Assembly: GCA_919902995.1 (NCBI GenBank)
Contig: CAKKSD010000032.1
Location: 20,336 to 84,335 of the forward strand
Length of the DNA stretch: 64,000 nt
From: Thermodesulfovibrionia bacterium
GTDB lineage: Bacteria > Nitrospirota > Thermodesulfovibrionia > JACRGW01
Reading direction: 5' to 3'
Shown here piece by piece: positions 49,694 to 54,182 of the stretch. The notes beneath the pieces were generated by a model, which was not told the DNA's origin, ran no database searches, and was given only the letters and a program-made list of their open reading frames with translations. The stretch's first letter is position 1. Every line of letters begins with the position of its first letter. A program made the translations under genes and the position numbers.

Positions 49694-49831
49694 AAAGACT
49701 TTGTGGTTAACTTAAGTATGGTTCTGTTATTGAAAATGAGTTTTTGTGATGCCTTTAAAGTAGCAAACAGCAACATCCAATAAAACAAGGATTGAAACTT
49801 AGACCGTATACCCACTTGCAAACCCTTCCTT

Positions 49832-52486
49832 TTGATGTTATTCTCTCGATATGAATTTCTGGATTTAATGTTCGGATTTAAGGAGAAACCACTGTTGGAA
49901 GACTTTTTGCCTCTTGTTCAGAGGCCATCGAGATATATAGGTAACGAGATAAATTCTGTTCATAAGGATTCTGACAGGGTTAGGGTATCAGTAGCCCTTG
50001 CCTTTCCGGATACCTACGAGATAGGCATGTCACACCTGGGGTTAAAGATCCTCTATAAGATCCTAAATGACATGTCTGATGTATCTGCTGAGAGGGTCTA
50101 TGCCCCGTGGATAGACTATGAAAAGATATTAAGGGCAAAGGGACTTCCATTAAGGAGCCTTGAATCCTCAAAACCATTAAATAACTTCGATATAATCGGA
50201 TTCACCCTTCAGTATGAACTGAGTTATACAAATATCCTGAATATCCTTGACCTCTCCAATATTCCCTTACGATCAGAGGAAAGACATGGGAAATATCCTT
50301 TGATCATAGCAGGAGGCCCCTGTGCCTTTAATCCAGAGCCTCTTGCAGACTTTATTGACGCCTTCCTGATAGGAGATGGAGAAGAGGCGATAGTAGAGAT
50401 TATGAATATATACAAAGGATGGAAATCAGATCGAGTTACAAAGGACGAACTCCTTGAAAGACTTTCAGGGATCGAAGGTCTTTATGTCCCATCCCTTTAT
50501 GAGATAAATTATCTGCCTGATGGAAGGATCAAAGATATAAAGGGGCCTAAAGTAAAAAAGAGGTTCCTATCCGAACTCGAGGGAGCCCCTTTCCCGGATA
50601 GACCTGTCTTACCATATCTGAAAACAGTCCATGACAGGGTAACAATCGAGATAGCAAGAGGCTGTACAAGGGGATGCAGGTTCTGCCAGGCAGGTATTAT
50701 ATACAGACCCTGGAGGGAGAGGAGCCCTGAGAGGGCAATGTACTTAGCAGATAAATCTCTAAGGAACACAGGTTATGAAGAGGTATCCCTCACTTCTTTA
50801 AGTTCAGGTGATTACAGCTCACTTCTTCCCCTTATGAAAAATATTACCTCGCGGTTTGAATCAAAAAGGGTATCCATATCCCTGCCTTCGCTCAGAATAG
50901 GGACGTTAACAGATGAGATGATCCGTGAGATTAAGAAAATACGGAAGACAGGCTTTACGATCGCCCCTGAGGCAGGTACTGAGAGGCTGAGGAGAATTAT
51001 AAATAAAGAGATGAACGAAGGAGAATTCGAAAAGACAGTGAGATGGGTCTTTGATGAAGGCTGGGATACCCTGAAGTTTTATTTTATGATAGGTCTTCCA
51101 ACAGAGAATAAAGATGACCTCAGCGGCATTATAGATATGGCAAAAATGGTTCTCAGAATTGGGAGAGAGAGGTGCCGGAAGTCACCGAATATAAATCTCG
51201 GCATCTCTACCTTTGTTCCAAAGGCACATACACCCTTCCAGTGGATGGGACAGATCCCGCTCAATGAAATAAGAGAGAAAATGTATTATCTAAAGGGACA
51301 TTTAAAAAGGGGGAAGTTTAATCTAAAGGGTCAGGGTCCTGAGATGAGCCTCCTTGAGGCGGTCTTTGCAAGGGGTGATAGAAAACTGGGTAATCTTATT
51401 GAAAAAGCCTTCAGGCTCGGTTGCCGTTTTGATGGATGGACAGAATGTTTTGATTATAACAGGTGGAATAATGCCTTTGAAGAATCCGGAATAGACCCTC
51501 GCTTTTATGCTAATCGTGATATCGAACTTCAAGATACCCTGCCATGGGATTTCATAGAAACAGGTGTTAAAAAGGAGTTTCTGGAAAGAGAGTATAAGAA
51601 GGCATTCCTCGAGAAGGGATCAAAGGACTGCCGTTATGGGCCTTGCCTTAGTTGTGGACTACCCTGCGAGAAAGTTAAGAGTTCGAAGGGTCTGGGGTCA
51701 GGTCTTGAATCTTGCATTAGAGATAGGTTTAATGTCAAGGTGCCAAGTATTCTAATGCAAGATTCAAGACCTGACCCCATTTCTCGACTAACTCTTAACG
51801 CCTCACGATTCACGATCCCTATCAGGGTAAGGATGATGTTTTCTAAGACTGGTCCCATGATGTTTCTGTCGCATCTCGAACTCATGACCGCTATTCAGAG
51901 GGCAGTAACGAGGGCGGAGATACCTGTTGCCTTCTCTCTTGGGTTCAATCCCCATCCAAAGATTTCCTTTGGACCTGCCCTTCCTGTAGGTATTGAGGGA
52001 TTTAGAGAATATTTTGATATAGATCTAAATTCTCCTGTAAATATCGAAGGGGCCGTAGAAACACTTAACAGGGTTCTGCCGCAGGGTCTTCAAATACATA
52101 ATGCAAAGGCTATCTACCAGAAGTCAAAGTCACTATCAAGCATTGTGAAACGGTATATCTACTCATTAGAGGTATCGAAGAGTGAGATAGAACTCCTTAA
52201 GAAGAACTTAATAAAAGAGCGAATACCTTTCGAGAGAAAAACTGGGAAAGGATTAAAGCAGGTAGACCTTAGACCGATGATATTAGATCTGAATTTTTCA
52301 GATGGAAAAGAGGCAATCATCACCCTCCAGGACACTGAAGAATACTCAGTAAAACCCCTTGAGGTCTTAGAGGTTTTACTTAAAAGAGATCCCCTTATGT
52401 CAAAGATCAGAAGGATCGCTCTATTTGGGATGAGTAATGGTGGATGGGTTGAACCCATGGAGATAATAAATAAAGTTTCAAAGTAG
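49832..52486 (+). CDS. Fused B12-binding-type radical SAM protein (TIGR03960-like) + DUF2344 (TIGR03936-like) domain
   Basis: CxxxCxxC (ARGCTRGCRFCQAG). C-terminal IRVRMMFSKTGPMMFLSHLELMTAIQRA...GFNPHPKISFGPAL matches the radical-SAM-linked DUF2344 pattern. The ORF-track start is upstream of the likely true start. Confidence 0.8.
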   Translation: MMLFSRYEFLDLMFGFKEKPLLEDFLPLVQRPSRYIGNEINSVHKDSDRVRVSVALAFPDTYEIGMSHLGLKILYKILNDMSDVSAERVYAPWIDYEKILRAKGLPLRSLESSKPLNNFDIIGFTLQYELSYTNILNILDLSNIPLRSEERHGKYPLIIAGGPCAFNPEPLADFIDAFLIGDGEEAIVEIMNIYKGWKSDRVTKDELLERLSGIEGLYVPSLYEINYLPDGRIKDIKGPKVKKRFLSELEGAPFPDRPVLPYLKTVHDRVTIEIARGCTRGCRFCQAGIIYRPWRERSPERAMYLADKSLRNTGYEEVSLTSLSSGDYSSLLPLMKNITSRFESKRVSISLPSLRIGTLTDEMIREIKKIRKTGFTIAPEAGTERLRRIINKEMNEGEFEKTVRWVFDEGWDTLKFYFMIGLPTENKDDLSGIIDMAKMVLRIGRERCRKSPNINLGISTFVPKAHTPFQWMGQIPLNEIREKMYYLKGHLKRGKFNLKGQGPEMSLLEAVFARGDRKLGNLIEKAFRLGCRFDGWTECFDYNRWNNAFEESGIDPRFYANRDIELQDTLPWDFIETGVKKEFLEREYKKAFLEKGSKDCRYGPCLSCGLPCEKVKSSKGLGSGLESCIRDRFNVKVPSILMQDSRPDPISRLTLNASRFTIPIRVRMMFSKTGPMMFLSHLELMTAIQRAVTRAEIPVAFSLGFNPHPKISFGPALPVGIEGFREYFDIDLNSPVNIEGAVETLNRVLPQGLQIHNAKAIYQKSKSLSSIVKRYIYSLEVSKSEIELLKKNLIKERIPFERKTGKGLKQVDLRPMILDLNFSDGKEAIITLQDTEEYSVKPLEVLEVLLKRDPLMSKIRRIALFGMSNGGWVEPMEIINKVSK
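51694..51778. repeat. 28-bp perfect inverted repeat inside the radical SAM/DUF2344 linker coding region
   Basis: ggggtcaggtcttgaatcttgcattaga (51694-51721) and its exact reverse complement (51751-51778), 29-nt spacer. Reading frame stays open. Confidence 0.9.
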
Positions 52487-54063: not shown

Positions 54064-54119
54064 CAGAAATAACCAATAATTATTATGATTACACAGATTT
54101 TTTAAGATTACATAATTAT

Positions 54120-54160
54120 GATTACACAGATTAATAAAGTATCTGTGTAATCTGTTTTTA
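54120..54160 (+). terminator. Rho-independent terminator of rng
   Basis: 12-bp stem gattacacagat / atctgtgtaatc, 9-nt loop, followed by tgttttta. Confidence 0.55.
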
Positions 54161-54182
54161 AATCTGCGTAATCATTTTAAAT

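Follow-up and report, generated by a model that had tools for sequence, protein, structure and literature searches.

A putative transposase-associated hairpin repeat, probably inserted in frame into the linker of a Nitrospirota radical SAM fusion gene

A long perfect palindrome lies within an open reading frame of a groundwater Nitrospirota bacterium, between two domains of a fused radical SAM protein. This raises the question of where the palindrome came from and how the host gene accommodates it. In what follows the window is the whole 64-kb stretch of DNA that was analysed. The features that bear on the question are these.

49832..52486, + strand: host gene, a fusion of a TIGR03960 B12-binding radical SAM part and a TIGR03936/DUF2344 radical-SAM-linked part (ORF, Pfam, NCBIfam)
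51668..51692, + strand: native linker to the left of the insertion (EKVKSSKG), aligning to L001 5083-5100
51693..51721, + strand: left arm, transposase-associated repeat unit, encoding GSGLESCIR (unit model E = 2e-8)
51722..51750, + strand: spacer (hairpin loop), part of the insertion, encoding DRFNVKVPSI
51751..51779, - strand: right arm, inverted repeat unit, encoding LMQDSRPDP (unit model E = 1.5e-8)
51780..51832, + strand: native linker to the right of the insertion (ISRLTLNASRFTIPIRVR), up to DUF2344, with similarity to L001 5126-5155
51634..51885, - strand: 83-codon antisense mirror ORF, produced by the palindrome and not a gene (ORF listing)

The two arms (51693-51721 and 51751-51779) are each 29 nt long, 100% complementary and separated by a spacer of 29 nt. 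The inverted repeat described at 28 bp in the first-pass annotation is real and slightly longer, at 29 bp. The whole palindrome (51693-51779) spans 87 nt, or 29 codons, in frame. In the left arm a core, GGGGTCAGGTCTTGAATCTTGCA, occupies 51694-51716, with a T outside it and TTAGA inside; these also pair, which carries the pairing beyond the 23-nt core over all 29 nt. The 28-mer occurs just twice in the window, as the arms, where shuffled sequence gives an expectation of 0. As RNA the palindrome region is predicted to fold at -60.6 kcal/mol (z = -9.7). The reading phase of the insert is the only one free of stops through both arms and, since the insert is 29 codons long in this phase, the host gene stays open. 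Its protein would contain the predicted peptide FNVKVPSILMQDSRPDPISR, a marker for read-through of the palindrome. The antisense ORF at 51634-51885 does encode GSGLESCIR and MQDSRPDP, as had been remarked. On the antisense strand the order is arm, reverse-complemented spacer, arm, with spacing equal to that of the sense strand; the antisense frame repeats the sense arm peptides because the inverted repeat is perfect and its arms are equally spaced. The mirror ORF is thus a trivial, automatic consequence of the palindrome.

The host ORF runs for 884 codons from a TTG at 49832, or 872 codons from the ATG at 49868 that the databases take as its start. Pfam recognises Radical_SAM_N2, Radical_SAM and DUF2344 in the protein. 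A single uninterrupted ORF holds both NCBIfam matches, each above its curated cut-off: TIGR03960 (759.2 bits vs 462.3, aa 24-611) and TIGR03936 (194.5 bits vs 71.9, aa 665-861). The ORF listing and the spans of the family models agree with the first description of the palindrome as lying between the radical SAM and DUF2344 parts. An AF2 model of the protein (pTM 0.86) is confident apart from residues 602-648, its sole long low-confidence coil (pLDDT 32-42), and on this model the insert sits in a predicted disordered interdomain linker. The gene next after the host gene encodes an RNase E/G family protein. What is known of the host enzyme itself is unchanged by the palindrome.

Comparison with orthologues indicates that all 87 nt, arms and spacer alike, are an insertion. 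This is judged from the flanks, which match orthologues where the spacer does not, and from the closest orthologue, which lacks the palindrome (86% identity, among the matches listed). The left flank (51668-51692) is similar to the linkers of 6/7 orthologues (p = 0.002) and the right flank (51780-51832) to L001 5126-5155 (score 35, p = 0.002). Similarity of the spacer to orthologue linkers is not above the null (p = 0.15-0.95). The left arm shows no similarity to the linker of any orthologue tested; the right arm resembles linkers of more distant orthologues, and a partial older remnant at the right-arm site may be present. Repeat units are absent from the seven orthologous loci searched (L001-L003, L005-L007, L168). 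The earlier suggestion that the segment, now put at 87 nt, is an insertion thus holds, the flanks being homologous and the loop not. An apparent resemblance by eye of RFNVKVP in the spacer to FRVKGP/EFRVKS, which would make the spacer ancestral linker, did not rise above the null in an empirical test; the FRVKGP/EFRVKS segment of the orthologues aligns to the left flank in the window, not to the spacer. Boundaries were set without the MAFFT alignment of linker DNA, which was ambiguous. In L001 the flank homologues lie ~25 nt apart, and ~24 nt of its linker are missing from the window. The nearest orthologue that lacks the insert is ~10% diverged at the nucleotide level and the exact empty site is not reconstructable. 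Close orthologues differ in linker length by ~30 aa. The linkers of orthologues show no RNA structure in excess (z from -1.3 to +1.5), and RNA structure conserved across orthologues was rejected on this ground. Decayed unit halves and heptamer repeats were seen in the same linker of relatives.

The insert is fixed in the sampled population, as judged from assembled sequences: every strain at 98-100% identity has it in unaltered form. The identical 87 nt occur in an ENA contig (L004) that differs from the window elsewhere by 4 SNPs and an indel, and in two Logan assemblies (L169 and L170) that are 98.2% and 98.8% identical over the gene, making four assemblies or strains in total. The insert peptide is the same in 9/9 full-length members of the 90% protein cluster. 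Two strains carry 48 and 32 substitutions in the rest of the gene, some of them 5-10 nt outside the insert on both sides, and 0 changes in the 87 nt; with ~2.7 changes expected in the insert, P(0) is ~0.07, which falls short of significance, and the strains are non-independent. These assemblies also speak to whether the palindrome is real or a fold-back chimera. The palindrome does interfere with assembly in places: one public contig, that encoding P0130, starts within the right arm. Against an artefact, the same structure recurs in assemblies of different runs (NCBI, ENA, JGI and several from Logan) that carry SNPs at other positions; on either side of the palindrome the sequence continues normally, as does the reading frame; and the arms match a repeat found in isolate genomes. 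The artefact, flagged at the outset as a risk, is scarcely conceivable after this check across assemblies.

Each arm is a copy of a 23-nt unit, GG(G/T)GTCAGGTCTTGAATCTTGCA, and the window arm matches the external repeat consensus at 23/23 nt. The 20-mer of the arm was found at 40 loci in genomes and at no fewer than 120 in metagenomes, where the size of the genome collection predicts ~1 by chance. Public loci with the unit number over 160 and come from several phyla. A fuzzy scan counted 387 units in 162 loci; some stand alone, some pair into hairpin dimers with loops of two classes (4-7 nt and 35 nt), and others form tandem arrays with a 22-nt repeat. The spacer in the window has no match in other fetched loci except those of the same species. 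The unit starts with GGGGTCAG, which fits GGGGWSAS, and holds a direct heptamer repeat (TCTTGAA TCTTGCA); a GT[AG]G foot is absent, and the unit does not pair with itself. No target-site duplication was found at the window copy, and a flanking direct repeat of at least 3 nt was found in 0/64 other dimers. Several Burkholderiales dimers are followed by ATTCTCGA/ATCTTTCG, likewise in the window, where ATTTCTCG stands directly 3' of the palindrome stem. As estimated from fetched loci, in-frame intragenic copies account for 1/180 sites of the unit family examined. Other apparent intragenic sites were set aside: some were junk open frames in 66-74% GC DNA, that of L028 lay in an upstream region, and that of L057 was an isolated 20-mer within a conserved motif of metallophosphoesterase-like type. 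Matches in Acidobacteriota (MAPAYLQDSRPDF, at the start of an E1-dehydrogenase-like gene) were also rejected; they lack the GGGG foot, and a 20-mer is expected to match once by chance in 596 Gb, which could account for them. The full-text literature search, within the text available to it, returned no related report of the 23-nt unit.

The unit family is, on sequence evidence, associated with a Y1/HUH transposase. At seven loci (L059, L062, L099, L078, L054, L020 and L055) units flank such a gene in one layout, with 1-3 direct units upstream of an ORF of 288-299 aa and 2-4 inverted units overlapping its 3' end or following it. No gene other than this transposase was found enclosed by inverted sets of units. 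Its ORF, 299 aa long in L059, matches Pfam Y1_Tnp (7e-11) and NCBIfam NF047646, the REP-associated tyrosine transposase (84.7 bits, cut-off 80). It carries the motifs NHYH and YVELNP or YVVLNP, and several weak matches point to a C-terminal HTH at aa 250-287. The unit is nearly invariant across several phyla, although the transposases are only 35-40% identical. Singles, dimers and clusters are dispersed in other genomes; in this species there is one dimer in 64 kb, and neither a Y1 transposase gene nor further unit copies beyond the dimer were found, whether in the 64-kb window or in the ~16 kb covered from two sister strains. Plasmid carriage as the cause of the spread of the transposase was dismissed, with only three distant matches of 34-37% identity.

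This arrangement is that of the TIRtrons, in which GGGGWSAS repeats flank a Y1 transposase known as a TIRYT (Di Nocera et al. 2013, PMC3733652; Quentin et al. 2018, PMC6006769). The related enzyme classes are TnpA-Y1 subclass 2.1 (PMC6006769) and RAYT Group 1 (Bertels et al. 2017, PMC5581495). Like TIR repeats, the unit starts with GGGGWSAS, stands in opposite orientations on the two sides of its transposase gene, whose 3' end the downstream repeat overlaps, and occurs as singles, dimers and groups with a wide, patchy taxonomic spread. TIRYT enzymes are described in PMC6006769 and PMC3733652 by an NH[YF]H or NHVH HuH motif, a Y[IV].LNP tyrosine motif and a C-terminal HTH; the unit-flanked transposase shares NH[YF]H, Y..LNP and the HTH. 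There are differences. The unit is near-invariant between transposase lineages 35-40% identical and across phyla, unlike TIR repeats. Quentin et al. found no REP-like repeats for subclass 2.1 (PMC6006769), whereas here repeat units flank a subclass 2.1-like transposase. The window copy is intragenic and in frame; the published in-frame intragenic copies, in the sources as available, are GTAG or CGTC REPs, with none found for TIR repeats.

The palindrome is also like a REPIN, in which two inverted units and a spacer make a non-autonomous long hairpin; its mover is believed to be a Y1 transposase, present in one copy and with units on either side of its own gene (Bertels and Rainey 2011, PMC3116915). 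Canonical REP units have a 5' GT[AG]G foot and are themselves small imperfect palindromes (PMC6006769); their enzymes are RAYTs of Groups 2 and 3, and the units are mostly confined to a lineage and lie outside genes. By contrast the window unit lacks both the GTAG foot and self-complementarity, and the enzyme associated with it is Group 1-like. For the reading frame there are precedents. RPEs of Rickettsia and intragenic REP dimers of Opitutus terrae and others lie in frame in functional genes (PMC3733652). They too are short palindromic repeats that lengthen the protein by ~20-30 residues, presumably where a surface or linker region can bear it, but they belong to other repeat families (CGTC- or GTAG-tagged) and other hosts, and the RPEs have no known transposase. 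REP insertions also keep the reading frame inside subclass 2.4 tnpA-REP genes (PMC6006769). There too the protein accommodates an in-frame repeat, in a region that is variable and peripheral, but the host gene is the transposase itself, where the window host is an unrelated radical SAM fusion. The palindrome is thus an example of a phenomenon already described, in-frame REP/RPE insertion being documented. The claim that it is a rare case stands as to frequency, at 1/180 sites, and falls as to novelty, given these in-frame precedents (PMC3733652 and PMC6006769).

We propose that the palindrome is very probably a REPIN-like dimer of a TIRtron terminal repeat unit, inserted in a tolerant linker. 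The TIRtron would comprise a TIRYT-type Y1/HUH tyrosine transposase gene (TnpA-Y1 subclass 2.1, RAYT Group 1) flanked by GGGGWSAS inverted repeats, and the palindrome would be two inverted copies of its 23-25-nt terminal unit, non-autonomous by themselves. Such a dimer would fold as a single-stranded DNA hairpin that the transposase, acting in trans, may cut and rejoin with no target duplication; cutting and rejoining of this kind are modelled on IS200/IS605 and REP/RAYT. We infer that a cognate transposase in this genome did so. One 87-nt dimer, arms together with their own loop, would then have entered the hypervariable, disordered linker between radical SAM and DUF2344. The event would date from the interval between the separation of this lineage from its nearest sequenced neighbour (~90% nucleotide identity) and the divergence of the strains seen today (at least 98.2%). 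The host protein would have gained 29 linker residues, apparently tolerated, and the insert is probably neutral.

The same hairpin may have arrived as a mobile element and since been selected as a processing site, for instance for RNase III, or as a place where ribosomes pause, in which case it might uncouple expression or folding of the two domains. The 87 nt unchanged beside 48 and 32 substitutions (P(0) ~0.07), the very stable fold and the RNase E/G family gene next downstream speak for such exaptation. It is nevertheless unlikely: the conservation signal is neither significant nor drawn from independent strains, orthologues manage without structure at the site, and Rfam gives nothing for the palindrome region at the gathering threshold and, in a permissive scan, only generic miRNA-hairpin models below it. 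An origin on the spot, by template switching or inverted duplication that turned a quasi-palindrome of the linker into a palindrome with no mobile element involved, would suit the repetitive linkers of relatives, the likeness by eye of the spacer to the FRVK segment of orthologues, and an outer 10-bp inverted repeat in the native flanks, concentric with the palindrome, in which GTTAAGAGTT (51674-51683) pairs with AACTCTTAAC (51790-51799). We consider it very unlikely in the face of arms that agree with an external consensus at all 23 positions, a left arm unlike any orthologue linker and a spacer whose similarity is not above the null.

Two further origins had been offered in the first-pass annotation. 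A MITE in a tolerant linker was correct as to a small mobile element that inserted. A classical MITE, that is, a deletion derivative of a DDE insertion sequence moved by cut-and-paste with target-site duplication, is highly improbable. Terminal inverted repeats around a short non-coding centre would suit one, and the tandem 22-nt end sub-repeats are reminiscent of certain DDE elements, which have several binding sites for their transposase, but it is a Y1/HUH transposase that lies between the inverted units, and the flanking direct repeats are missing from the window copy and the 64 dimers alike. The other origin, a fossil intergenic hairpin or intrinsic terminator captured when the genes fused, has next to no likelihood now. 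It drew on the position of the palindrome exactly between the two family matches, and the NCBIfam names rSAM_fuse_unch and sam_1_link_chp imply that the parts are linked or fused in other organisms. But 120/120 homologues, at 46%-86% identity among the matches listed, are already fused, and the palindrome is absent from the 86% orthologue and the others examined, whose linkers show no excess folding. The arms are moreover perfect, and therefore young, and belong to a dispersed repeat family. As for a terminator, 51400-52100 holds no terminator-like stem with a T-run; the stem is 29 bp with a loop of 29 nt.

The locus offers a clean, population-fixed example of a hairpin repeat, associated by sequence with a Y1 transposase, within a coding frame; in the literature as available, no report was found of protein read-through of such hairpin repeats for Nitrospirota or for TIRYT repeats. 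It also supplies a concrete 23-nt candidate recognition sequence for a poorly studied, very widespread subclass of transposase, which eases binding and cleavage assays. For annotation, the peptides GSGLESC, GQVLNLA, CKIQDLTP and QDSRPDP, and mirror ORFs, mark this repeat and not protein families; for assembly, such palindromes can break contigs.

A wider reading is possible but rather doubtful. The linker of the radical SAM fusion may be a long-standing landing pad that a selfish repeat has repeatedly supplied and resized, the period-7 microsatellites of relatives being decayed, slipped unit halves, and the invariance of the unit would point to a constraint beyond one transposase lineage. If so, that constraint could be, for example, a conserved host factor or a conserved HTH-DNA code. 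The linkers of related Nitrospirota are indeed built of period-7 microsatellites, and that of L168 retains 16/17 nt of a unit half in the right-arm orientation and in the same reading frame (QDSR).

The 87-nt palindrome in the host gene is a dimer of a TIRYT/RAYT-type repeat that has inserted, in frame, into a linker that tolerates it. The first-pass annotation placed it in frame inside an 884-codon ORF, between the B12/radical-SAM portion and the TIGR03936-like domain, and it does lie there, in the ORF at 49832-52486 (+). The 28-bp inverted repeat described there is perfect and real, with arms one nucleotide longer:

51693-51721: left arm of the inverted repeat, 29 nt, perfectly complementary to the right arm
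51751-51779: right arm of the inverted repeat, 29 nt

The spacer between the arms is also 29 nt. A check for other copies of the 28-mer found none elsewhere in the 64-kb window and none in shuffles. As RNA, the region has a folding energy of -60.6 kcal/mol (z = -9.7). Counted from the ATG at 49868, the host ORF has 872 codons; its protein matches TIGR03960 over the N-terminal part (aa 24-611, 759 bits) and TIGR03936/DUF2344 over the C-terminal part (aa 665-861, 194.5 bits). The antisense mirror ORF (51634-51885) does encode the arm peptides again. It is an automatic by-product of the palindrome: on the opposite strand the order is again arm, spacer (as its reverse complement) and arm at equal spacing, which forces one antisense frame to give the arm peptides of the sense frame. 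An outer 10-bp perfect inverted repeat in the native flanks (51674-51683 / 51790-51799; GTTAAGAGTT / AACTCTTAAC) is almost concentric with the dimer and lengthens the predicted RNA stem (-83 kcal/mol across 180 nt); it may be chance, an earlier dyad or a site-selection element.

Two origins had been suggested, a fossil intergenic hairpin or terminator captured at gene fusion and a MITE inserted into the linker. The terminator reading is rejected because the homologues are already fused, orthologous linkers lack both the unit and excess folding, and no terminator-like site is found in 51400-52100. Radical_SAM_N2, Radical_SAM and DUF2344 occur in one protein in all 120 homologues among the matches listed (46-86% identity). 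Between ...CGLPCE and ...PIRVR the linker sequence is hypervariable, and linker length varies by ~30 residues across the eight nearest relatives. The repeat unit, ~23 nt, is absent from all seven orthologous loci searched, whose linkers show no folding beyond that of shuffled controls (z -1.3 to +1.5). By these comparisons the fusion is old and the palindrome young.

The whole 87 nt is an insertion. The left flank (51668-51692) is homologous to orthologue linkers (p = 0.002 in 6/7) and the right flank (51780-51810) to that of the close orthologue L001 (score 35), in which the homologues of the two flanks are ~25 nt apart. The exact empty site is not reconstructible, since the nearest insert-free relative is ~10% diverged from the window. 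The spacer (RFNVKVP) was considered as ancestral linker and rejected, its best local alignment with each orthologous linker scoring no higher than with segments drawn at random from those genes (p = 0.15-0.95). Neither the window copy nor any of 64 other dimers has a target-site duplication, which fits HUH/Y1 single-strand transposition and counts against a DDE-type MITE. The mobile-element suggestion thus holds as an inserted mobile repeat in a tolerant linker, but not as a DDE-type MITE.

Species-representative genomes and metagenomes were searched with the arm 20-mer GTCAGGTCTTGAATCTTGCA, giving 40 loci in the genome collection, where chance alone would give about one match, and at least 120 metagenome loci. 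Hosts include Burkholderiales, Gammaproteobacteria isolates (Tamilnaduibacter, Rheinheimera, a Marinobacteraceae strain), Zetaproteobacteria, Nitrospirota/Thermodesulfovibrionia, Dadabacteria, Methylomirabilales and Acidobacteriota. The full unit in context is GG(G/T)GTCAGGTCTTGAATCTTGCA; a heptamer is directly repeated within it (TCTTGAA TCTTGCA). In a fuzzy scan, 162 loci yielded 387 units, as singles, 22-nt tandem arrays and hairpin dimers whose loops fall into discrete classes, one of 4-7 nt and one of 35 nt, the latter a loop conserved among GC-rich contigs. In seven Acidobacteriota loci (L008, L033, L037, L038, L042, L044, L058) the 20-mer lacks the GGGG foot and is read as LQDSRPD, codons 6-12 in a conserved E1-dehydrogenase-like gene (~760 aa). 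It is probably the single chance match expected for a 20-mer in 596 Gb, an ancient capture being less likely. Several Burkholderiales dimers (L024, L015, L041) have the right flank ATTCTCGACA, ATCTTTCGGA or ATCTTTGGCA, resembling ATTTCTCGAC at 51780-51789 in the window, a likeness that may come from the element preferring certain target sequences.

Seven loci have an ORF of 288-299 aa with direct units (one to three) upstream and inverted units (two to four) at the 3' end, either overlapping that end or lying after it; units encode the C-terminal residues (...LQDSRPDPARFKT). The ORF product is recognised by Pfam Y1_Tnp (7e-11) and by the NCBIfam model NF047646, 'REP-associated tyrosine transposase' (84.7 bits, cut-off 80), and carries NHYH and YVELNP/YVVLNP motifs with weak C-terminal helix-turn-helix matches. 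No Y1 transposase gene lies within the 64-kb window. Quentin et al. 2018 (PMC6006769) take NH[YF]H/NHVH, YIELNP/Y[IV]HLNP and a C-terminal HTH as the defining features of TnpA-Y1 subclass 2.1, which they identify with the TIRYTs described by Di Nocera et al. 2013 (PMC3733652). TIRYT genes have terminal inverted repeats on either side with a common GGGGWSAS, forming 'moderately abundant families' of singles, dimers and clusters. The window arm likewise starts GGGGTCAG. RAYT Group 1, the counterpart of subclass 2.1, is the most widely distributed and most IS-like group (Bertels et al. 2017, PMC5581495). The palindrome is thus a REPIN-like dimer of such a TIRtron repeat, predicted to work like a REPIN, although its unit differs from a canonical REP in having no GT[AG]G foot and no self-complementarity. 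The flanked transposases are only 35-40% identical (~40% between those of TIRtrons L059, L062, L099, L078 and L054 and those of L020 and L055), although the 23-nt unit is essentially the same. Such near-invariance across several phyla is unexpected, as REP units are normally lineage-specific; part of it is an ascertainment effect, since the loci were retrieved by an exact 20-mer.

The insert adds 29 codons. The left arm has a stop in one of three frames (GGG GTC AGG TCT TGA) and the right arm, in the window copy, in two (TC TAA...; ...ACC TGA); read directly, the sole phase open across both arms is that used by the host gene. The AlphaFold2 model of the host protein, of high overall confidence (pTM 0.86, mean pLDDT 84.8), has only one long internal low-confidence coil, residues 602-648 of the 872-aa form (pLDDT 32-42). 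Since the insert (residues 609-637) lies entirely inside it, it lengthens a linker that is already disordered and variable in length. Unit sites fall in long stop-free frames at 18 of 180 sites in fetched loci. All but the window copy were rejected, being junk Arg/Pro-rich frames (DNA of 66-74% GC), sites in upstream sequence or a 20-mer standing alone within a conserved enzyme motif. The window copy alone survives inspection, and in-frame insertion is therefore rare for this unit family (1/180 sites). The earlier claim of a rare case stands to that extent, but in-frame REP/RPE insertions are documented: PMC3733652 reports proteins lengthened by 20-30 residues through Rickettsia RPEs and through GTAG/CGTC REP dimers (Opitutus terrae and other species), and PMC6006769 in-frame REPs in subclass 2.4 transposase genes.

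The insert is fixed in the population. The host protein is MEK6690801.1 in NCBI, from a groundwater Nitrospirota bacterium, and the insert peptide is common to all nine full-length members of its 90% protein cluster. A same-species ENA contig from Hainich groundwater (L004) has an identical palindrome, with 4 SNPs in 6966 nt and one indel relative to the window. Two Logan assemblies, with host genes 98.17% and 98.78% identical, carry the 87 nt unchanged, their closest substitutions being at 51688 and 51789. These identical copies rule out an assembly artefact. Zero substitutions within the 87 nt, where ~2.7 are expected (P about 0.07), are only suggestive of conservation. A 913-nt Logan contig of the same species (P0130) starts inside the right arm; the hairpin therefore breaks some short-read assemblies.

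For small palindromes the linker is a hot spot of insertion and deletion. The two closest orthologues carry another GC-rich hairpin insert of ~48 nt (CCCCG...CGGGG; L001 5031-5083, L002 2095-2147), absent from the orthologue L003. TRF finds period-7 tandem repeats in three orthologous linkers (L005 4364-4425, L168 1905-1941, L006 4796-4849; motifs TCAGACA, CAAGACT and AGAGTTC/TTCCGAC), translated in all three phases. The right arm, and not the left, is similar to the L168, L007 and L006 linkers (p = 0.002 each). The L168 array has 16 of the 17 nt that make up half a unit (AACGCAAGATTCAAGAC), with the orientation and reading frame of the window right arm, and the best non-window matches of a unit HMM fall in the L168 linker (E = 0.011 and 0.079). 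This similarity hints at older, decayed unit insertions at the same linker site.

The rodA-to-radical-SAM spacer holds a single CRISPR-repeat-like sequence (49760-49798, ending ...ATTGAAAC; Rfam CRISPR-DR7, 42.1 bits, gathering score 37), with no second copy within the window. Among relatives, L001 has toxin-antitoxin genes in this spacer and L003 a restriction-modification system; it is therefore a variable insertion spot. The spacer 3' of the RNase E/G gene (54087-54173) is another small repeat or hairpin cluster, with four copies of GATTACACAGAT, two direct and two inverted (one mismatched), where shuffles give 0.4 matches per whole window.
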